Positions 115 through 11,592 of a DNA stretch of 64,000 nt are shown in pieces. The first letter of the stretch is position 1, and each line of letters opens with the position of its first letter. A program made the translations under genes and the position numbers. This DNA is from an uncultured delta proteobacterium (GTDB lineage: Bacteria > Myxococcota_A > Polyangia > Fen-1088). The notes under the pieces were generated by a model. The model saw only the letters and a list, made by a program, of their open reading frames with translations, made no database searches and was not told the DNA's origin. Where the stretch lies: assembly GCA_963767925.1 (NCBI GenBank), contig CAVYGB010000013.1, positions 160,001 to 224,000 of the forward strand, written 5' to 3'.

Positions 115-1092
<978 letters not shown>

Positions 1093-1423: not shown

Positions 1424-3331
1424 ATGTCGATCCTCGCCGTCGTCGCCGCGTGGGCCGACGATCCGGCGCGCCGCGATCGGGCCCGCCGCATGATCGAGCC
1501 GCTGGCCGAGCGGGCTCCCGACGGCCGGGCCAGCGTCGAGGCTCCCGGCGCGGCGCTCGCCTTCGGCAAGCTCGTCGTCTCGCGCCGGCAGGGGCACGCC
1601 GCCCAGCCGCTCAGCGACGCGGCCGCCGGCCTTTACCTCGTCGCCGACGTGCGCATCGACAACCGCGACGAGCTCCGCCCGACGCTGGGGTTGCCCGCCG
1701 CCGCCACCGACGCCGAGCTCGTGCTGGCCGGCTACCGCCAGTGGGGCGTGGCCCTGCCCGATCACCTGGTCGGCGACTTCGCCTTCGCCGTGTGGGACGC
1801 CCGGGCCCGCCGCCTGTTCGCCGCCCGCGATCCCTTCGGCGTGCGCCCGCTTTATTACCGCCGCCTGCCCGATGGGGCGCTGCTCGTCGCCTCCGACGTC
1901 GAGTCGATCCTGGCCGTCGATCCCGGCGCCTGGAAGGTCGACGACCAGGCGGTGATCGACCACCTGCTGTCGGCCTGGCCCAGCCCCGAGCGGACCTTCT
2001 GGGAGCCGATCCGGGCGCTGCCCGCCGGCCATGCGCTGCTGGCCAGCGCCGCTGACTGCCAGGTGCAGCGCTGGTGGCGCCCGCCCGCCGTGCCCGCGAT
2101 CCTCGCCGACCACGAGACCTGTTACCGGGAGCTGCGCCGCCGCCTGCGCCAGGCGGTGGCCGACCGCCTCGACGCCGACCACCCGGTCCTCGTCCACCTC
2201 AGCGGCGGCTTCGACTCGACCGCCATCGCCACCCTGGCCGGCACGATCGAGGCCCGGGCGCCCCTGCGCGCGGTCGGCGCCGTCTACCCCGGCCTGGGCT
2301 GCGACGAGTCCCTCTACATGGACGCGGTCCGGGCGCGCCTGCCGTACCCCACCGAATACTGGGACGGCACCCGCCCGCTGTCCCTCGATCTGGACGCGCC
2401 CGCGCTGGCCGGGCCCGGCCTGCGCACCTGCCTCAACGACGGCACCCGGGGGGATCAGGAGATCGCCCGCAGGGAAGGAGCGCGGGCGGTGCTCTCCGGT
2501 CTGGGCGGCGACGTCTGGCAGCCCTGCAACGAGAGCCAGCGAGACTACCTGCGCCGGGGCCACTGGCGGCAGCTCTGGCAAGCGGCGTTCATGCGCCCCG
2601 GAATGTCCTGGGGAGGCAGGGCGCGGGTGCTGCGCTGGTCGCTCGGTCAGGAGACGCCGGAGGCGATCCGCGCGCTCGGCCGCCGCCTCCGCCGCCGGGC
2701 GCCCGCCGCGGCCCCGCCCTGGCTGGCGCGGCCAGCCACGCGCGATCCGCTGCCCCCCGCGCCCGAAGCGCAGGCCCTGGCGCGCTCACACGGGCTGGCC
2801 CAGGCCCGCCGCCTGCTCGATCTCGGCGGGCCGCGGCCGGTGCACGCGCTCGCGCGGATGCAGGTCGTCGCGGCGGCCAACCAGGTCGAGATGCGCTTTC
2901 CCTTCCTCGACGTGCGCCTGGTCGACCTGCTGTGGCGGCTGCCCCTCACCATCTGGGGCCCACCCGGATACCCGGCGCGCCTCCACCCCCTGGTGCTGCG
3001 CGACCTGCTGCCCCCCGAGGTGACGTCGCGCCGCTGGAAGACGGATTTCTCGGCCGCGCTGGCCGCCCGGGCCGCGCTGGCCTGGCGGGCGCTGCGGGCC
3101 CGCTCCGACCCGCCCGGTCACCTTCTCCTCGAACGCTACTGCCGGGGCTCCCACATCGCCGCGCTCGCCGGCGCCGACCTGCCGCAATCGCCGCTAAAAG
3201 CCGATCGCTGGAGCGAGATCTGGCGCCTGGCCGTCCTTGAGGCCTGGCTGGAGATGGTCTATGGTCAGGCCCGCAGTCGCCTAACTTCGAGGGGGGAACA
3301 TGGACACTGGCCCGAAAGCAACAATCGTTGA
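1424..3331 (+). CDS. Lasso peptide cyclase (C protein), asparagine synthetase-like
   Basis: RIDNRDEL, GDFAFAVWD, ARDPFGVRPLYY, LSGGFDS ATP loop, LSGLGGD, EMRFPFLD; N-terminus MSIL lacks the catalytic Cys of Gln amidotransferases; adjacent to precursor and B2; GGGAGG RBS. Confidence 0.88.
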   Translation: MSILAVVAAWADDPARRDRARRMIEPLAERAPDGRASVEAPGAALAFGKLVVSRRQGHAAQPLSDAAAGLYLVADVRIDNRDELRPTLGLPAAATDAELVLAGYRQWGVALPDHLVGDFAFAVWDARARRLFAARDPFGVRPLYYRRLPDGALLVASDVESILAVDPGAWKVDDQAVIDHLLSAWPSPERTFWEPIRALPAGHALLASAADCQVQRWWRPPAVPAILADHETCYRELRRRLRQAVADRLDADHPVLVHLSGGFDSTAIATLAGTIEARAPLRAVGAVYPGLGCDESLYMDAVRARLPYPTEYWDGTRPLSLDLDAPALAGPGLRTCLNDGTRGDQEIARREGARAVLSGLGGDVWQPCNESQRDYLRRGHWRQLWQAAFMRPGMSWGGRARVLRWSLGQETPEAIRALGRRLRRRAPAAAPPWLARPATRDPLPPAPEAQALARSHGLAQARRLLDLGGPRPVHALARMQVVAAANQVEMRFPFLDVRLVDLLWRLPLTIWGPPGYPARLHPLVLRDLLPPEVTSRRWKTDFSAALAARAALAWRALRARSDPPGHLLLERYCRGSHIAALAGADLPQSPLKADRWSEIWRLAVLEAWLEMVYGQARSRLTSRGEHGHWPESNNR

Positions 3332-3512
3332 GCCTGGCGAGGGTCAGCCGGCCCCGGCCTCGATCCCGTACGAGCCGCCGGCCGTCGTCCCGCTCGGCAA
3401 CGTGCACGAGCTGCTCGCGGGCGCCGGCAGCCGGACCTTCGACGCCATGATGGACACCCCGTCCTGCGGGACCTCGGGCGGCCGGTTCGACAACCCCCAG
3501 ATGGGTTGCTAG
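3300..3512 (+). CDS. Lasso peptide precursor (40-aa leader plus 30-aa core GAGSRTFDAMMDTPSCGTSGGRFDNPQMGC)
   Basis: Leader YEPPAVVPLGNVHELLA|G places Y at -17, P at -14, V at -12, G at -8; Gly1 and Asp8 in the core; between cyclase and B2 genes; G-rich RBS upstream. Confidence 0.88.
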   Translation: MDTGPKATIVEPGEGQPAPASIPYEPPAVVPLGNVHELLAGAGSRTFDAMMDTPSCGTSGGRFDNPQMGC

Positions 3513-3546: not shown

Positions 3547-3942
3547 GTGACCGCCGCCGCGACGCTGCTGGCGCGCCTGCGCGCGGCCGCCGCCGACCTG
3601 TTGCAGGTGGCCGTCCTCGCGGTGCCCGTCGACCGGGCCCGCAGGCAAGAGGGCCCGCGCGATCTGATCGCCCGCCTGCGCCAGCGGGGCCGCCGCTTCT
3701 CCCCGCGAGACGCCGCCCGCCGGGCCGCCCTGCAGCGGGCGATCGCCCGGGTCGACCGCCTCTTCCCGGGTGGACCCAACTGCTACCGGCGCGTCCTCCT
3801 GGAGATCGCCCTCGACGGCGGCGCTGCCCGCGAGCCGATCTCCTTCGGCCTGCGGGCGGGAGGTGGCCCCGGGTCGGGGCACGCCTTCCTCGGCAGCGAG
3901 CCCCCTCCCTCGTCGAGCTACGACGCCGTCTTCGACCTGTAG
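3547..3942 (+). CDS. Lasso leader peptidase B2 (transglutaminase-like core)
   Basis: AIARVDRLFPGGPNCYRRVLL (catalytic Cys region) and FGL...GHAFL (variant of HAW); 131 aa; follows the precursor. Confidence 0.82.
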   Translation: MTAAATLLARLRAAAADLLQVAVLAVPVDRARRQEGPRDLIARLRQRGRRFSPRDAARRAALQRAIARVDRLFPGGPNCYRRVLLEIALDGGAAREPISFGLRAGGGPGSGHAFLGSEPPPSSSYDAVFDL

Positions 3943-4940
3943 ACCGCCAGCGCCCCGGCCAGCGCGGCCAGCCCGGCCGGCGCGCGGGCCCGCTCGCTCC
4001 GGACCAGCGCCCCCAGCGCCTGGCCGCTGGCGACGAACCGGCGCAGGCTCTCCGCTTCCTGGCGGCCCAGGAAGGTCGCCAGCAAGATGTCCCGCAGCGC
4101 CTCCGCCGCCGGAAGCGGCTCGGTCTCGAAGGCCGGCGCCCCCCGCCTCCCCGCGTCCAGGAAGATCAGCCTGGCGAGCGGGACCGCCGGCTGCCCGGCC
4201 GCCTGCGCCAGCCCCGCGCAGTCGAGCGGCTGATCGGGCTGCAGCGCCAGCGCGCGGGCGGCCTCCGCGCACCAGGCGTAGATCTCTTTCTCGGCCTCCG
4301 GGTGGCCCCAGGCCCGCCCGTCTCCGGCCGAGACCACCAGCAGCTCGTCGGTCCGCTTCGGCGTCTCGGGGGCGTCGAGCAGGCGGGCCACGGTGGACTT
4401 GCCGGCCCCGCTGGCGCCGCAGAAGGCGGTCAGCGCGCCCCCGATCTGACAGCTCGAGGCGTGAAGCACCAGGAGCCCCTGGGCGGCCAGGATCTTGGGG
4501 GCCAGCAGCCGCAGCCCGTGCTCGAGGGCGATCGGCAGCTCCTCGGGGCCGACGAGCAGGCGGAGATGACGGCCGTCACGGTCGATGCCGAGCAGCGCCC
4601 GCCCCCGGACGACCAGCGCGTATCCCCCCTCGGCCGGGCGGTAGGGGAGCTCGTCCGTCCAGACCGGCTCGCGGCGGGCGCTGGCCAGGGCGTCGCGCAC
4701 GCCGGCCAGCGCCGCGCGGGCCTGCTCGGGCGACAGGCCCCAGTGCCGGCGGGTGGCCGCCAGGACCTCCTCCCACGAGCCGCTCTCGGTGATGAACCGG
4801 CAGACCGCGGCCGCGCTGGCGTTGAGCGAGGAGTAGGTGCCGCTGTCGAGATCGAGGGCCAGTCCCCCTCCGGAAAACAGGGCGAAAACGTGGCGCGTGA
4901 CAAATTCCTGGATCGGCTCGGAGGCAGCAGAGACGTTCAC
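3918..4940 (-). CDS. HprK-like P-loop kinase with N-terminal PqqD/RRE-like domain
   Basis: GTG at 4940 overlaps the TGA of the upstream RRE gene (GTGA); N-terminal LALDLDSGTYSSLNASAAAVC...WGLSPEQARAAL; kinase motifs LHASS, GASGAGKST, TDE, PLARLIFL. Confidence 0.8.
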   Translation of the reverse strand: MNVSAASEPIQEFVTRHVFALFSGGGLALDLDSGTYSSLNASAAAVCRFITESGSWEEVLAATRRHWGLSPEQARAALAGVRDALASARREPVWTDELPYRPAEGGYALVVRGRALLGIDRDGRHLRLLVGPEELPIALEHGLRLLAPKILAAQGLLVLHASSCQIGGALTAFCGASGAGKSTVARLLDAPETPKRTDELLVVSAGDGRAWGHPEAEKEIYAWCAEAARALALQPDQPLDCAGLAQAAGQPAVPLARLIFLDAGRRGAPAFETEPLPAAEALRDILLATFLGRQEAESLRRFVASGQALGALVRSERARAPAGLAALAGALAVYRSKTAS

Positions 4941-5230
4941 CGCAGCCTCTCGGCCAGACCGCTGGTCTCGAGCTCGACGCCGAAGCGGCCCACGTCGGAC
5001 CGGAGCCGGTCGGGCGGGACGTCGAGGCTGACCTGCAACTCGGCGCACACCTCCTCGAGCGTGCGCAGGCCATCGAGCCGGCTCCAGACCTCGGCGCCGA
5101 CCTGGTTGAGCTCGAAGCAGCCGCCGGTGCGGCCGTCGAGCAGCAGCGCCTTCTCGGGCAGCCGGCGGCACTCGACCCCGTCACGCCGTCGCAGCCGGAG
5201 GGCCAGGATCGAATCCGACGAATCCGACAT
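4937..5230 (-). CDS. PqqD-family RiPP recognition element (B1/E protein), 97 aa
   Basis: Hidden at the 3' end of a long shadow ORF: MSDSS...ALLLDGRTGGCFELNQVGAEVWSRLDGLRTLEEVCAELQVSLDVPPDRLRSDVGRFGVELETSGL. Confidence 0.88.
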   Translation of the reverse strand: MSDSSDSILALRLRRRDGVECRRLPEKALLLDGRTGGCFELNQVGAEVWSRLDGLRTLEEVCAELQVSLDVPPDRLRSDVGRFGVELETSGLAERLR

Positions 5231-5359
5231 TGCCTGCGGCCATCGTACCATCGGGGGCGAGCGGGGTGCACTGGTTGCACTTGACGACCGTCGGGGATTC
5301 TGTCGTCCTGATACCGACATCCTGTGCCGTTCAGCGCACTTATGACGAAAGGAAAGCCT

Positions 5360-8300
5360 ATGCGCAGCCCTCGGAGGGACCCTGGTGACCGGAGGCCTGG
5401 TCTCGTGTCGGCGCGGATCGCGCCGGCGTCCCTCGTCCTGCTGGCGCTGGTCGGCTGTGGCGCTGGCAGCGCCCCCCCGGCGCCGCCGCCCGCCGCCGCC
5501 GAGGGCGCCGCGCGCCCGCCCGCCACCCGGCCGGGGTGGCTGGCGGAGGTGCGCGAGGCGGTCGCCGCCGGCGAATACCGGATCCGAGGGCAGGGGACCA
5601 CCTTCGAGGCCGTCAACCGCTTGCAGGGCCTGCGCGCCCGCTGGTCGCGGGGCGAGCTGGGGGTGGCGGCGCGGACCGGCCATGGTGCGGATCGCGCCGA
5701 GACCATCAAGCTGCGCACCGTCGGTCTGGTCGGCCGAGGTGGGGCCAGGGCCGCCGCCGGCCCGCACCACCTGGGCGACTGTGGCGGGCTCGCCGTCAAG
5801 GACGAGAACGGCCAGTGCCTCCGGCGCCTCGAGCGCGCGGGGAACGGCCTCGTCGAGCGCTGGGAGAACCGGCCCGACGGCCTCGCCCACAGCTTCCTGG
5901 TCTCGCCGCCTCCCGCTGGCGCCCGACCCGGGGCCGACGGCTGGCTGGCGATCGAGGTCGCGGTCACCGGCGCGCGGGTCGAGCTCGCCGCCGGCAGCAC
6001 CAGCGCCGAGCTGATCGGCAAAGGTGGCCAGCGCCTGCGCTACGCCGGCCTCGCCGCCTGGGACGCCGACGAGAAGCGCCTGCCGGTGCGCATGCGCCGC
6101 GCGGCCGGAGGGATCCGGCTGGAGGTCGACGATCGGGGGGCTCGCTATCCGCTGCTCGTCGATCCGGTGCTGACCGCGGGGGCCTGGACCTCGGAGGGCA
6201 ACCAGGCCGACGCCGGCGTGACGATGGTGGTGGCCGGCGCGGGCGACGTGAACAACGACGGGTTCGACGACGTGCTCGTCTCGTTCCCCCGCTACGACGG
6301 CGGCGGCACCGACGCCGGCGTCGTGTACCTCTATTTCGGATCGGGGACCGGACCCGACACAACCGCCGACTGGACCTCGCAGGGGACCAGCGCGGCCGGG
6401 GCGGCGGCGGCCAGCGCCGATTCGCGCTTCGGCAACTCGATCGCCGGGGCCGGCGACGTGAACAACGACGGCTTCGCGGACGTGATCATCGGCCAGCCCC
6501 GCTTCAGCAACGGCCAGACCTTCGAGGGCCGGGCCTACCTCTTCCCGGGCTCGGCGGCCGGCCTGCCGGCCGTCCCCGCCTGGACGGTGGAGAGCGATCA
6601 GGCCAACGCCTTCCTGGGGCTGACGGTGGCCGGCCTCGGCGACATCAACGGGCCAGCGGGCGGGGCCAGCTTCGACGACGTGGCGGTGACCGCCGGGTCG
6701 TTCGACAGCAACGGGCTCACCGACAACGGCCGGGTGCTGGTCTACCTCGGCGCGGCCGGCGGCCTGGCGGCCGCCCCCTCCGACACCATCGACGGCGCCT
6801 TCTCGGCCTTCGGCCTCGGCACCCTGGCCGCCTCCGCCGGGGACGTCAACGGCGACGGCCGCAGCGACGTCATCCTGGCCTCGCCCTACTACAGCAACGG
6901 CGAGATGGACGAGGGCATCGCCTACGTCCACCTCGGTCGCGCCGACGGCACGCTCGAGCGGACCGGGGCCTTCACCTTCGAGACCAACGAGGCGGGCGCC
7001 CCCATCACCTCGGTCGCCGGCGTGGGTGACGTCAACGGGGACGGCTACGCCGACGTGGCCCTGGGCGTCCCGGGCAAGAACAACGGTGTCTCGGACGAGG
7101 GCGCCGTCCTGTTCTTCGCCGGCTCGGCCAGCGGGCTGGTGGCGGTCCCCACGATCCTCGGATCCAGCGACGGCGGCTCGAGCTTCGGCGTCACGGTGGC
7201 GGGACCGGGCGACGTCAACGGCGACGGCTACGCCGACATCGCCGTCGGGGCCTATCGCCGGGATACGCCCGGGCTGGCCAACGTCGGCAGCGTGACCCTG
7301 ATCGCCGGCTCGCGCGGCGGGCCGGCCATCACCGCCGCTACGCTTGCTGACACAATCCTGTACGGCATCGCCGCCGAAGACAACCTGGGCAACGCCCTGG
7401 CGGGTGCCGGCGACGTCAACGGGGACGGCTACGCCGACGTGATCGCCGGGTCCACCGGGGCCGACAACGGCCAGGCCAACGAGGGGCGGGCCTCGATCTA
7501 CTTCGGCTCGGCCAATACCAGCGGGCTGCGCGCGCTCAGCGATCTCGGGATCGAGAGCAACACCGCGGGCGCCGGGCTGGGGACGGCGCTGTCGGCAGCG
7601 GGCGATCTGAACGGCGACGGCTTCGGCGACTTCGTCGTGGCGGCGCCCAGCTTCGGCGGGGCCAACAACGGCACGGTGTTCGTCCACCTCGGCGCGGTGG
7701 GCGGGCCGGATGGCACGGCCGACGGCACCTTGACCGGGCCAGCGGGGGCCGGCTTCGGCGAGGCGGTGGCCGCGGCCGGGGACGTCAACGGCGACGGCTT
7801 CGCCGATCTCCTGGTCGGCGCCCCCAACTTCGGGGACGGGCAGGTCGACGAGGGGCGGATCTATCTCTATCCGGGGGCCAGCGGCGGCATCACCGCGGCC
7901 ACTGTCCCGGTCACCTTCGACAGCAACGTCGCCGGGGCCCTGCTGGGCTCGGCGGTGGGCGCGGCCGACGTCAACGGCGACGGCCTGTCCGACGTGGCGG
8001 CCGGGGCTCCCGGGCTGGCCAACGGACAGGTCGGCGAGGGGCGGGTCTACGTTCTGCGCGGCAGCCTGGCCGGCCTGACGACCGCCAGCCCGATCACGGT
8101 GGAGAGCGACCTCGCCCTCTCGCGCTTCGGCGCCGCGCTGGCCGGAGTCGGGGACGTGAACGCCGACGGCTACGCCGACCTCGCGGTCGGGGCGCCGGGC
8201 TACAGCAACGGGGAGATCGGGGAGGGTCGCCTCTACATCTATCCCGGCAGCGCCGCCGGCCTCGGCGCGCCCATCACCCGGGAGGTCGACGTGGCGGGCG

Positions 8301-10360
8301 CCGCGCTCGGCACCTCGGTGGCCGGCGCGGGCGACGCCGACGAGAACGGCTACGCCGACGTGATCGCGGGCGCCCCCGGATCGAACAGCGGGGCCGGGGT
8401 TGTCTACGTCTACGAGGCGACCGCCGCGGGGGTCACCGACACCCCCTTCTCCTACGCCTCGGCGGTGGCCGGCGCCAGCCTGGGCGCCGCGGTGGCGGGG
8501 GCGGGTGACCTCGACAACGACGGCGTGGGCGACGTTGTCGTGGGCGCGCCCGGCTACGCCAACGGCCAGGCCGGCGAGGGGGCCCTCTACGTCTTCCTCT
8601 CGGGCGGCACGGTGCTGCCCGGCATGCCTTCGGCGATCATCGAGGGTGGGACGGCGGACCTCCGCCTGGGCAGCGCGGTGGCCGGCGCCGGCGACCTCAA
8701 CGGCGACGGCGTGAGCGACGTCGTGGTGGGCGCGCCGGGCTACGCCAGCGGGCAGGCCGGCGAGGGCCGGGCCCTCGTGCACCTGGGGAACACGAACGGC
8801 CGGCCCTATCGGCTGCGCGCCCTGCGGCCGGGGACCAGCACCCCGGTGCAGGCGGGCAACGTCGTGCCGAGCTCGATGGCCGCCTTCGACATCGCGATCT
8901 TCGCCACCGGCCCGCTCGGGATCACCAACGTGCGGCTCGAGACCGAGGTCAAGCCGGTGGGCGTGCCCTTCGACGGCAACGGCACCGTGCTCGACCCCGG
9001 CTTCACCAGCACCGGGCTCGCTGGCGTGACCCTCACCCGCAGCGTCACCGGCCTGGCCGGGCGCACCCGTTACCACTTCCGGGCGCGCCTCCATTACGAC
9101 CCGGCCCAGCGCACGCTGCTCGGCCTGACCACCCCCTGGATCAACGGGGGCGCGCTGGGCGACGCCGGCGGCGTCCACCTGCGCACCGACGGGGTGGGCC
9201 TGGGGACCGCCTGCACCATGGCCAGCGACTGCGGCTCGGGCTTCTGCGTGGACGGGGTCTGCTGTGACACCGACTGTGGCGGCGGCGCGACCGGCGACTG
9301 CCGGGCCTGCACCATGGCGGCCGGTGGCACCCTGGCCAGCGGCATCTGCAGCGACCGGGCGGTCGCCGCCACCTGCAGCGACGGCAACGGCTGCACGGCC
9401 GCCGACACCTGTCAGGCGGGCGGCGTCTGCCAGCCCGGGACTGCGGTCACCTGCACGGCGATGTCCCAGTGCCACGACCTGGGGGTGTGCAACCCCGCGA
9501 CCGGCATGTGCACCAACCCGACCAAGGCCGACGGCACCACCTGCAACGACAACAGCATGTGCACGACCGGCGAGACCTGCCAGGCGGGGGCCTGCGCCAG
9601 CGGCACCGCCACCGTCTGCCCGCCGATGTCGACCTGCCACGACCCGGGCGTCTGCAACCCGGGCACCGGCACCTGCTCCACCCCGGTCAAGGCGGACGGG
9701 TCGTCATGCAGCGACGGCAACCTGTGCACGCAGACCGACACCTGCACGGCGGGCGTGTGCAACGGCGCCAACCCCGTGACCTGCGCCGCTCCCAACGCCT
9801 GCCAGGATCCCGGCACCTGCGTGGCCGCCACCGGCCTCTGCAGCTACCCGCCCAAGCCCGACGGCACCGCCTGCAGCGACGGAAACCTGTGCACGGGCAC
9901 GGACGTTTGCACGGCCGGGTCCTGCGTGGGCCCCGCCGTGGACTGCAATGACGGCAACGTGTGCACCACCGACACCTGCGTCCTCGCCACCGGCTGCGTG
10001 CGCACGCCGGTGGTCGGCTGCGTGCCGACCGACGGCGGCGCTGACGCCTCGGGCGACGGGCCCCGCGACGGCGCGGGGGATGGGGCCGGCGACGCCTCGG
10101 GCGACGGGGCCCGCGACGGCGCCTCCGGTGACGCCCGCCCGGCCGATGGCGCGACCGGCGACGCCCGCGACGCCGCCCGGGACACCACCTCCGCCGATCG
10201 CCCCGCCGACACGCGAGCCAGCGACGGCGGCGCGTCCATCCGGCGGGTCGGGGGCGGCGGCGGCTGCGACTGCGACGTCGGGCGCGGCCAGGGCACCCTG
10301 CAGGCACCCCTGCTGCTGCTCGGCCTCGGGCTGATCTGGTACCGGCGGCGCCGCCGCTAG
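5360..10360 (+). CDS. Large surface protein: FG-GAP/integrin-like beta-propeller repeats, Cys-rich repeats, MYXO-CTERM-like anchor
   Basis: Possible lipobox LVGC; more than 10 AGAGDVNGDGxADxxVGAP repeats; CxDGNxCTxxDxC repeats; C-terminal GGCDCDVG..LLLLGLGLIWYRRRRR; start chosen on the AAAGGAAA RBS. Confidence 0.9.
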   Translation: MRSPRRDPGDRRPGLVSARIAPASLVLLALVGCGAGSAPPAPPPAAAEGAARPPATRPGWLAEVREAVAAGEYRIRGQGTTFEAVNRLQGLRARWSRGELGVAARTGHGADRAETIKLRTVGLVGRGGARAAAGPHHLGDCGGLAVKDENGQCLRRLERAGNGLVERWENRPDGLAHSFLVSPPPAGARPGADGWLAIEVAVTGARVELAAGSTSAELIGKGGQRLRYAGLAAWDADEKRLPVRMRRAAGGIRLEVDDRGARYPLLVDPVLTAGAWTSEGNQADAGVTMVVAGAGDVNNDGFDDVLVSFPRYDGGGTDAGVVYLYFGSGTGPDTTADWTSQGTSAAGAAAASADSRFGNSIAGAGDVNNDGFADVIIGQPRFSNGQTFEGRAYLFPGSAAGLPAVPAWTVESDQANAFLGLTVAGLGDINGPAGGASFDDVAVTAGSFDSNGLTDNGRVLVYLGAAGGLAAAPSDTIDGAFSAFGLGTLAASAGDVNGDGRSDVILASPYYSNGEMDEGIAYVHLGRADGTLERTGAFTFETNEAGAPITSVAGVGDVNGDGYADVALGVPGKNNGVSDEGAVLFFAGSASGLVAVPTILGSSDGGSSFGVTVAGPGDVNGDGYADIAVGAYRRDTPGLANVGSVTLIAGSRGGPAITAATLADTILYGIAAEDNLGNALAGAGDVNGDGYADVIAGSTGADNGQANEGRASIYFGSANTSGLRALSDLGIESNTAGAGLGTALSAAGDLNGDGFGDFVVAAPSFGGANNGTVFVHLGAVGGPDGTADGTLTGPAGAGFGEAVAAAGDVNGDGFADLLVGAPNFGDGQVDEGRIYLYPGASGGITAATVPVTFDSNVAGALLGSAVGAADVNGDGLSDVAAGAPGLANGQVGEGRVYVLRGSLAGLTTASPITVESDLALSRFGAALAGVGDVNADGYADLAVGAPGYSNGEIGEGRLYIYPGSAAGLGAPITREVDVAGAALGTSVAGAGDADENGYADVIAGAPGSNSGAGVVYVYEATAAGVTDTPFSYASAVAGASLGAAVAGAGDLDNDGVGDVVVGAPGYANGQAGEGALYVFLSGGTVLPGMPSAIIEGGTADLRLGSAVAGAGDLNGDGVSDVVVGAPGYASGQAGEGRALVHLGNTNGRPYRLRALRPGTSTPVQAGNVVPSSMAAFDIAIFATGPLGITNVRLETEVKPVGVPFDGNGTVLDPGFTSTGLAGVTLTRSVTGLAGRTRYHFRARLHYDPAQRTLLGLTTPWINGGALGDAGGVHLRTDGVGLGTACTMASDCGSGFCVDGVCCDTDCGGGATGDCRACTMAAGGTLASGICSDRAVAATCSDGNGCTAADTCQAGGVCQPGTAVTCTAMSQCHDLGVCNPATGMCTNPTKADGTTCNDNSMCTTGETCQAGACASGTATVCPPMSTCHDPGVCNPGTGTCSTPVKADGSSCSDGNLCTQTDTCTAGVCNGANPVTCAAPNACQDPGTCVAATGLCSYPPKPDGTACSDGNLCTGTDVCTAGSCVGPAVDCNDGNVCTTDTCVLATGCVRTPVVGCVPTDGGADASGDGPRDGAGDGAGDASGDGARDGASGDARPADGATGDARDAARDTTSADRPADTRASDGGASIRRVGGGGGCDCDVGRGQGTLQAPLLLLGLGLIWYRRRRR

Positions 10361-10725: not shown

Positions 10726-11592
10726 TCAGCGGGGACGCCGGGTCAGGCGTTCCCGCAGCCAGGGCAAGCCGTAGGTCGCCGCCACCCGGGGCAGGGCGCT
10801 GGGTCGGTCGGAGAGCAGGGGCTTGAGGACCAGGTGGCGCAGGTAGCGGGACACGCCCGCCCGCAGGTGGAGCTGGGGACGGGTGGCCACCCAGCGCTCC
10901 ACCAGATGCCGCCGCAGCCGCAGCGGCCGGTGCCGCTCGAGCGCGAGCGGTGGGATGGCGCTGCCGCCGGCCCGCAGGGTATCGGCCAGCAGGACCAGGG
11001 GCAGGCTCAGCGCCGCGCGCCGGGCGCGCGCCTCGCACAGGTCCCAGTCGATCGGCTGCCGGGCCAGCAAGTGGCGGCAGTCGGCGGTGTGCCGGTCGTC
11101 GAGCGCGTAACAGTGGTTGGCGTGGTGGGCGGCGGCGTAGAGGATCTGGTCCTCCGCGCACAGCGAGAGGATCGGCCCATCGACGCTGTCCCAGGCCACC
11201 GCCCGGGCCAGCAGCTCGCGGGGGGCCAGCTCGAACCAGACCGGCTCGGTGAGGCCGCGGTGTAGATCGACCGTGAGGGCCCCCGCCGGCGGCTGGAAGG
11301 TCCACTCCTTGTGTCCGAAGTAGCGGTCGTAGGCCGTGGCGCCGTTGAAGTCGTAGCGCTGGAACCCGCGCGCCGTCAGCTCCGTCGCGAAGGCGGCGAA
11401 GGCCTCCGGCTGCACGAGGATGTCGACGTCGCAGCCGGTGCGCGCGCCCCGGCCGCCGTACAGCACCGGGTCGGCCCAGGCGGCCTTGAGGTAGACCACC
11501 TTGCTGCCGACCTTGCGCCCGATCTCGTCCAGCGCGCCCCGCTGGGCCTTGATGAGCAGGCTCTGGACCAGGCCGGCGTTGCTTGCCTTCAC
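10726..11592 (-). CDS. Nucleotidyltransferase family protein (NTP_transf_5-like)
   Basis: VVYLKAAWA..LY....R...DVDILV, VDLH, and a helical C-terminal part with IDWD. Confidence 0.8.
   Translation of the reverse strand: MKASNAGLVQSLLIKAQRGALDEIGRKVGSKVVYLKAAWADPVLYGGRGARTGCDVDILVQPEAFAAFATELTARGFQRYDFNGATAYDRYFGHKEWTFQPPAGALTVDLHRGLTEPVWFELAPRELLARAVAWDSVDGPILSLCAEDQILYAAAHHANHCYALDDRHTADCRHLLARQPIDWDLCEARARRAALSLPLVLLADTLRAGGSAIPPLALERHRPLRLRRHLVERWVATRPQLHLRAGVSRYLRHLVLKPLLSDRPSALPRVAATYGLPWLRERLTRRPR

Follow-up and report, generated by a model that had tools for sequence, protein, structure and literature searches.

The nearest tested system to the one described here is the bsf cluster of Bradymonas sediminis FA350, in which BsfB2 and BsfB1 cut the lasso peptide precursor BsfA after Ile(-2)-x in vitro (Duan et al. 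2023, PMC10368454). Replacing Ile(-2) of BsfA with Thr or Ala abolishes cleavage, and replacing it with Leu or Val leaves barely any. Acidobacteriaceae and Sphingomonadales have Ile/Val(-2) precursors too, accompanied in every case by a kinase, and predicted Ile/Val/Ala(-2) precursors are cited there from Kretsch et al. 2023. BsfK phosphorylates ring Ser3 of the linear precursor, with B1 helping (PMC10368454). We investigated a lasso peptide locus in a 64,000-nucleotide stretch of contig CAVYGB010000013.1 (the window), which comes from a draft genome of the Polyangia that is 83.8% complete with 5% contamination. An earlier note on this DNA had claimed that the precursor leader carries Leu instead of the near-invariant Thr at position -2, in the register Y-17/P-14/hydrophobic-12/G-8, and had proposed a subfamily with altered peptidase specificity that mining tools may miss. 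We found the Leu in exactly this register, encoded by CTC at 3414-3416, and the range 3300-3419 is the exact 40-residue leader. Leu(-2) is a conserved feature of a large, mostly unannotated family centred on Polyangia (Myxococcota). The precursor and its partner genes, with lengths in amino acids (aa), are as follows.

1424..3331, plus strand: cyclase C, Asn-synthase-like, 635 aa (Pfam Asn_synthase 97.6 bits, GATase_7 85.9 bits)
3300..3512, plus strand: precursor gene A, 70 aa plus stop, ATG start, with profile matches to 30 other small open reading frames (ORFs) adjoining homologous cyclases
3300..3419, plus strand: leader peptide, 40 aa, C-terminal end GNVHELLA, register Y(-17)/P(-14)/V(-12)/G(-8)
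3414..3416, plus strand: Leu(-2) codon CTC (Leu39), read from the sequence
3420..3509, plus strand: predicted core, 30 aa (GAGSRTFD...), with a predicted Gly1-Asp8 macrolactam ring, Ser4, Cys16 and Cys30
3547..3942, plus strand: leader peptidase B2, 131 aa, transglutaminase-like (Pfam Transglut_core3, PF13471, 21.8 bits; gathering cut-off 26)
within 3547..3942, plus strand: B2 catalytic residues Cys79 (3781-3783), His112 (3880-3882) and Asp126
3918..4940, minus strand: kinase-like K, 340 aa, PqqD-like at its N-terminus (Pfam PqqD 23.2 bits), with a P-loop domain (GASGAGKS, His160)
4937..5230, minus strand: RRE (B1), PqqD family, 97 aa (Pfam PqqD 55.9 bits)
5119-5117, minus strand: Cys38 of B1, at the Tyr position of B1s from Thr(-2) clusters

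The full precursor sequence is MDTGPKATIVEPGEGQPAPASIPYEPPAVVPLGNVHELLAGAGSRTFDAMMDTPSCGTSGGRFDNPQMGC, and its residues 24-41 are YEPPAVVPLGNVHELLAG, as the earlier note wrote. Counted back from A40↓G41 (the arrow marks the proposed cut), the register residues are Y(-17), P(-14), V(-12) and G(-8), and the last three residues of the leader are L(-3), L(-2) and A(-1). Residues 24-33 (YEPPAVVPLG) thus match the lasso leader motif Y(-17)xxP(-14)xL(-12)xxxG(-8), and the penultimate residue, Thr in most lasso leaders, is Leu39. The core begins with the small residue Gly1 and has Asp8 within the 7-9 range expected of the ring acceptor. A Shine-Dalgarno-like stretch, GAGGGGGG, lies 5' of the precursor ORF. 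We searched all six frames of the window with a leader and ring pattern (Y..P.[LIVMAF]...G, 7 residues, G/A/S/C, Asp/Glu at 7-9), and the single match was the precursor ORF; 50 mononucleotide shuffles of the window gave a mean of 0.16 matches and a maximum of 1. A cut after T6-F7 of the core, which would restore Thr(-2), was rejected because the core would then start with Asp, no acceptor would stand at 7-9, and the Thr is unconserved.

The precursor is adjoined by an Asn-synthase-like cyclase, a transglutaminase-like Cys protease and a PqqD-like RRE, the three proteins that we took as the test of class. Against the NCBIfam lasso cyclase model NF033535 the cyclase scored 250.4 bits, under the cut-off of 525. 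K and B1 lie on the minus strand and converge on C, A and B2 of the plus strand. The stop of the cyclase falls 32 nucleotides inside the precursor gene (overlap 3300-3331). B2 and K, which converge, share 25 nucleotides at their 3' ends (3918-3942).

We compared this locus with the bsf cluster from its published description rather than by direct alignment with the Bsf proteins. Both have split B1 and B2 proteins, a kinase (here the kinase-like K) with an H…GxxGxGKS…acidic-pair motif, a nucleotidyltransferase gene and a neighbouring FG-GAP protein. Each leader combines YxxPxL with an aliphatic -2 residue, and each core has Gly1, Asp8 and a Ser in the ring, which is a predicted ring here. The two hosts belong to the same phylum in current taxonomy, and in our phylum comparison, a 400-genome sample, probable bsf relatives read …LIR↓G in register. 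The differences lie first of all at -2, where bsf-type precursors have Ile or Val and the window has Leu, which is of the same chemical class but a different residue; the I(-2)L change nearly abolished cleavage of BsfA. Position -1 is Arg in bsf and Ala here, and the family of the window conserves N(-7) and D(-4) in the leader. While bsf has Ser at core position 3, the family conserves Ser/Thr at position 4 or 5, and more than half of its members have two Cys. BsfB1 keeps Tyr (Tyr37), whereas the B1 of the window's family is never Tyr at that place. Unlike in bsf, no ABC transporter was seen within the 12 kb annotated.

Split B1 and B2 proteins are also found in paeninodin-type clusters (Zhu et al. 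2016, cited in PMC10368454) and in our control set of 77 loci outside the family. The control loci have the same leader motif up to G(-8) and cyclases 27-46% identical to that of the window over the best segment, but they differ in Thr(-2) (53/63) and in the Tyr of B1 (51/57). The published kinases of paeninodin-type clusters phosphorylate a C-terminal Ser (PMC10368454), and the family rarely ends in Ser. Fusilassin/fuscanodin (TfuB1 = FusE) and TbiB1 share with the window the B1 fold family and the β-strand motif G-x-[Y/C]-F-x-L-N, with Tyr instead of Cys38 and Thr(-2) instead of Leu(-2). An aliphatic residue at -2 in kinase-linked clusters has been a known principle since 2023, and the earlier note's implied novelty is reduced to that extent: the Leu(-2) family is real, and a natural Ile(-2) had already been validated in 2023 (PMC10368454), so that Thr(-2) is now no strict hallmark of lasso precursors in the literature. 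The features that are new, as far as we searched, are the selection of Leu at this position, how large the family is, its centre in Polyangia and the consistent loss of Tyr from B1. Literature searches combining 'lasso peptide' with 'Leu-2' found no report of a Leu(-2) lasso family, although Kretsch et al. 2023 lay outside the search and may mention Leu; searches on Myxococcota and myxobacteria gave nothing relevant among the matches listed.

We then assessed how far Leu(-2) is conserved. A word-index homology search with the peptide matched nothing but the peptide itself. Cyclase homologues at E<=1e-40 were found in 15 of 60 related genomes, all from the window's own taxonomic family (15 of its 36 genomes). 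Eight of these 15 cyclase loci have a small ORF directly 3' of the cyclase, with the leader YE(A/P)PxLxxxGNxx(D/E)LLA. A loose pattern detected no such precursor within 1.5 kb at six others, four of which were matched later by a profile, and one locus was cut by a contig end. The profile, built from nine peptides, had matches in 37 of 89 genomes of the window's taxonomic family, and 31 distinct peptides were extracted from all family loci. Position -2 is Leu in 27 of them, Val in three and Thr in one, position -1 is Ala in 30, and position +1 is Gly in 22. The core Asp is invariant, at position 8 or, in four peptides, at position 9. In the 30-member alignment (A2), the leader P and G and the core Asp are invariant, and Y is nearly so. 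The sole Thr(-2) peptide of the family (…GSLAAITA↓SMTMSGTD) can be aligned gap-free, its T falling on L and its Asp8 on Asp8. At L175 (G017:C128), a locus in the same family of genomes, a cyclase stands with a Thr(-2) precursor reading …ITA↓SMTMSGTD, and no B1, B2 or K was found in the 12.9 kb covered there.

The profile of 30 peptides was run against 1.84 billion representative proteins and gave 440 hits at E<=1e-3. Residues were counted in the best 150 of the 440 hits, less five long proteins and the two-copy protein P0023, which left 144 sequences. The results showed Leu at -2 in 137, Val in six and Ile in one. Ala stands at -1 in 136/144, Asn at -7 in 133/144 and Asp at -4 in 121/144, and the leader end has the consensus G-N-x-[RH]-D-L-L-A. 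In the core, Gly is at +1 in 120/145, Asp at position 8 in 135/144 and Ser or Thr at position 4 or 5 in 139/144; the commonest residues at position 2 are Gly (40 of 144), Ala (26), Thr (23) and Ser (15). The last residue is mostly Cys, Gly or Pro, with Ser last in 13/144. Ten family hits were looked up, and the five that were named are all called 'hypothetical protein', two of them labelled Polyangia bacterium. The subfamily proposed in the earlier note therefore exists (27/31 and 137/144), and collecting the small ORFs beside homologous cyclases, as the note had suggested, showed conserved Leu rather than the Thr(-2) that it had named as counter-evidence.

Exactly two Cys are present in 83/144 cores. 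Such cores (P0010-P0159) often have one Cys just before the ring Asp (…CD) and the other at or near the C-terminus, a sequence layout that suggests a ring-to-tail disulfide. The window differs from this layout, with Cys16 and Cys30 both in the tail. Some profile matches contain more than one leader. P0023 (107 aa) has two family leader copies, each ending in …LRDVAH and followed by a Cys-rich core-like stretch, and may be a two-core precursor or a fused pair. The longer matches P0015 (199 aa), P0028 (268 aa), P0011 (3307 aa) and P0044 (690 aa) contain 4-10 tandem lasso-leader-like segments. In P0015 and P0028 the copies read YE(P/A)P…G…(L/E)T, with short acidic stretches and a recurring 'D(A/E)RLK' spacer behind them, and proteins of this type may be multi-copy leader-like repeats.

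As a control, the window cyclase was searched against one genome per species, which gave 78 loci. The best of these, from a Myxococcales metagenome-assembled genome (46% identity), coincides with a family locus; the others come from Gemmatimonadota, Acidobacteriota, Proteobacteria, Chloroflexota and others. A regular expression for leader and ring found 63 candidates in 53 of the 78 loci, and 53 of the 63 have Thr(-2). Of the ten that lack it, one is the family member and most others, judged as a group, resemble chance ORFs. Kinase homologues were found in 59 frames of the control loci. Because these loci carry kinase homologues together with Thr(-2), the family sits within a broad kinase-linked lasso clade that otherwise has Thr(-2).

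Next, we compared the partner proteins. The PqqD domains of all loci were aligned to one profile, and column 34 was compared between them. This column is Tyr in 51/57 domains from Thr(-2) loci; the six exceptions lie in stop-to-stop frames of 400-663 aa and were taken as the kinase-linked second PqqD-like domain, not B1. The 20 family B1s have Cys (13), Ala (4), Thr (2) or one other residue in this column and never Tyr, and the window B1 has Cys38 there, within GGCFELN. The family B1 profile matches the solved RREs TbiB1 (5v1u, E 1.4e-18) and TfuB1 (6jx3, E 1.4e-17), with the Cys column aligned to the Tyr of TbiB1 (GTYFGL) and of TfuB1 (GEYWQLN). In the phylum sample, column 34 is Tyr in 5/5 Thr(-2) clusters, and in the …LIR↓G and …LVR↓G clusters, which are probably Bradymonadales, together with one …LVG↓K cluster, it reads C, C, C, C, L, T, Y, Y. 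Duan et al. (PMC10368454) state that the RRE Tyr (Tyr33 in FusE, Tyr37 in BsfB1) is thought to engage Thr(-2) in the S2 pocket, that this Tyr is unconserved in Bradymonadales B1s, and that the pocket for residue -2 is attributed partly to the RRE B1 and not to B2 alone. Polyubiquitin matches of B1 were discarded as summed weak repeats.

Two loci of the same class, L179 and L184 (G415), have further leaders of the Leu(-2) type, …RDVLG↓KTGPTGD and …RDVLA↓KSGPSGD, in which +1 is Lys and position 7 is Asp. At L179, column 34 is Tyr in the B1 and Phe in a second PqqD-like domain, and both loci misfit a simple rule of Tyr loss.

In 21 family B2s, C79 and H112 are invariant and D126 is nearly so, and the Pfam score of the window B2 is still under the cut-off. 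N78, R81 and R82 are invariant or nearly invariant in the family, compared with T, x and Q elsewhere; S110-G111 replaces x-A, and A93 replaces G. N78, R81, R82, S110 and G111 adjoin the catalytic Cys and His. By its sequence, B2 is a divergent subfamily. A sequence search of the PDB with B2 gave no match.

The spacing in K, H-x14-G-xx-G-x-GKS-x15-DE, largely fits the BsfK motif as published, the comparison being one of motif spacing. In the window K the residues are H160, G at +15, +18 and +20, K, S, and D-E at +38/+39. Homologues of K from other phyla have weak Hpr_kinase_C matches (E 4e-4 to 1e-2), and the PDB matches of K itself were set aside as P-loop noise. A second PqqD-like domain (K residues about 25-90) is present in the window and in 19/20 family loci, 20 in all, and each such cluster thus has two RRE-like domains, B1 and the N-terminal domain of K. 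Column 34 of the K domain varies, with Tyr (6), Leu (5) and Val (3) among the commonest residues. K was not regarded as a new fusion, because its putative catalytic His160 lies near His148 of BsfK and comparably long N-terminal extensions are present in kinase homologues from elsewhere.

The gene order is conserved. C-A-B2 faces K in 20/20 family loci with 8-kb flanks, C being lost to a contig end in one of them. In the window, as in 19 of the 20 loci, a stand-alone B1 adjoins K, and the twentieth has only a fragment at the locus edge.

We also predicted the complex of B2, B1 and the precursor, entering each as its family alignment. The predicted complex scored 0.84, compared with 0.49 for the best control, and passed a mark that is met by 116/157 solved complexes and 2/215 mismatched pairs. 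The partners had predicted local distance difference test (pLDDT) values of 52 or more, and 68% or more of the contacts were common to the runs. Residues 24-41 of the precursor (Y(-17) to G1), 35-45 of B1, and 77-80 and 105-113 of B2 form the confident interface. As the B2 residues include Cys79 and His112, the model would place the proposed scissile bond at the catalytic site of B2. The pass may reflect the likeness of the complex to solved RRE-leader complexes.

Taken together, these findings make it probable that the ORF encodes a lasso peptide precursor, that five genes, C, A, B2, K and B1, make the peptide, and that its selected Leu(-2) is read by a changed pocket. B1 would bind the leader through the canonical Y(-17)xxP(-14)xL(-12) strand. 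By analogy with BsfK, K would probably phosphorylate the conserved ring Ser/Thr on the linear precursor, the candidate residue being Ser4 here and Ser3 in BsfA. B2 (Cys79/His112/Asp126) together with B1 would then cut between Ala(-1) and Gly1 (LLA↓G), C would close the Gly1-Asp8 ring, and Cys16 and Cys30 may form a disulfide in the tail. The changed pocket would consist of a B1 without Tyr (Cys38) and a divergent B2, and Leu(-2) would be required rather than merely tolerated. The altered peptidase specificity proposed in the earlier note has indirect support from the two changed proteins, and the pocket is described as partly made by B1 (PMC10368454).

Several results weigh against this scheme. 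Among the 25 lowest-error contacts of the predicted complex, Cys38 of B1 touches precursor residues 31-34 (-10 to -7) and not Leu39, so the model does not show Cys38 as part of the pocket for residue -2. That column 34 corresponds to Tyr33 of FusE and Tyr37 of BsfB1 is deduced from its position and behaviour, the numbering and the remarks of Duan et al. Two Ile(-2) clusters retain the B1 Tyr. Because the family is one clade, its loss of Tyr may go back to one event that was inherited, and not to covariation that arose repeatedly. Neither Pfam nor the PDB gave K a significant kinase match of its own. The final acidic pair of K is D-E instead of D-D; the 22 family K frames have ED in 12, DD in three, DE in one and another pair or no match in six, and D-D is found in BsfK and 39/59 homologues from other phyla. 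Moreover, cleavage one residue later (LLAG↓A) also gives allowed ring sizes.

This last point is the basis of an alternative in which B2 cuts at LLAG↓A, so that the leader ends in Ala(-2)-Gly(-1) and an Ala1-Asp7 ring is formed, 7/8-membered across the family. Rings of 7 and 8 are both allowed, a small residue usually follows the conserved Gly, and 9/31 family peptides have M, E, S, H, N or T instead of Gly at the +1 of the earlier note. We nevertheless consider the later cut unlikely. Gly is the commonest first residue of lasso cores, and it stands at +1 in 120/145 sequences. The canonical spacing, counted from Y(-17) and from G(-8), puts the cut after LLA, and the Thr(-2) relative, ITA↓S…D8, aligns in the LLA↓G register. 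LIR↓G of the probable Bradymonadales relatives falls in this register as well, and that cut was mapped by mass spectrometry (PMC10368454). Even with the later cut, position -2 would still not be Thr. The earlier note had listed cleavage elsewhere as a ground for dropping its claim; judged by sequence, the LLA↓G site fits the conserved G1, Asp8 (135/144) and the register of the Thr(-2) relative.

Equally improbable in our view is that Leu(-2) is merely tolerated by a relaxed peptidase pocket, with recognition through N(-7), D(-4), L(-3) and A(-1). It is true that the entire stretch G-N-x-[RH]-D-L-L-A is conserved, not only Leu, and several Thr(-2) systems process T(-2)I at lower turnover (cited in PMC10368454). 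However, Leu in 137/144 sequences, with only Val and Ile as alternatives, argues for selection on the side chain, little or no cleavage is left after changes at -2 in the nearest tested system (PMC10368454), and B1 and B2 are both systematically unlike those of Thr(-2) systems. An artefact, whether a sequencing error, a decayed pseudogene or a chance ORF, is hardly conceivable. The genome is a draft, and the word-index search returned the peptide alone, but changing CTC to a Thr codon (ACN) takes two base changes, so the single base-call error that the earlier note had allowed for cannot account for it. The homologues already refute an artefact, with Leu kept in 137/144 independent sequences, and the likely ribosome-binding site, the conserved place between C and B2 in 20/20 loci and the motif found once against 0.16 expected also oppose it.

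A broader form of the changed-pocket reading is possible, though we put it at somewhat below an even chance. Here Leu(-2) would mark the largest natural non-Thr lasso lineage, with the RRE and peptidase pocket jointly rebuilt (Cys/Ala for Tyr in B1, new residues on either side of the catalytic Cys and His in B2) and orthogonal to the Thr(-2) and even the Ile(-2) machinery, and its products would be ring-phosphorylated and often disulfide-locked. If this is true, hundreds of sequence clusters, mostly from uncultured Polyangia, belong to that lineage, which would offer a natural set of non-cross-reacting leader/peptidase pairs and a product type not yet isolated.

The claim that mining tools may miss such precursors was supported in part. 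The precursor scored 14.9 bits against the NCBIfam model NF033521 (lasso_leader_L3; cut-off 19, E 0.02) over residues 24-38; this match covers positions 1-15 of the 20 in the profile and ends before -2. The model matches 7/9 family members at E<=1. Scores against the lasso leader, B2 and lasso cyclase models all fall short of the cut-offs, and the named homologues are called 'hypothetical protein'. In lasso precursor mining, Thr(-2) has been employed to filter or to score candidates. A review (PMC7327761) describes how the precursor-centred mining of 2012 filtered on the penultimate Thr, and says that in RODEO a cluster is recognised through Pfam matches to C, B and the RRE. The Leu(-2) family, with at least 440 sequence clusters matched by the profile and -2 read in the best 150 of the 440, therefore represents chemical space that Thr(-2) rules and the family models now in use under-call. 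A testable hypothesis of how the pocket for residue -2 is built comes from the matched change in B1, and engineers may find in the family candidates for orthogonal leader/peptidase pairs. As kinase-linked clusters with an aliphatic -2 have been known in principle since 2023, the advance is incremental.

Outside the five genes, the neighbourhood contains the following.

115-1092, minus strand: MoxR-type AAA ATPase, 5' of the cluster (AAA_3 203.7 bits)
5324-10360, plus strand: FG-GAP repeat protein, 1678 aa, between B1 and the nucleotidyltransferase
10726..11592, minus strand: nucleotidyltransferase, an N-type accessory gene (Pfam NTP_transf_5 83.7 bits)

The MoxR-type ATPase probably marks the cluster boundary. 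In the host genome, three further Asn-synthase-like paralogues (contigs C2, C8 and C6; L002-L004) are 29-37% identical to the cyclase, and the loose pattern gave no such precursor beside them. Homologues of the nucleotidyltransferase lie within 8 kb in 5/20 family loci and those of the FG-GAP protein in 3/20, and both were rejected as core genes of the family on these counts. The nucleotidyltransferase gene is possibly part of the lasso cluster. An FG-GAP protein also borders the bsf cluster of Bradymonas (PMC10368454), and its occurrence in 3/20 loci fits either a coincidence or a loose link.

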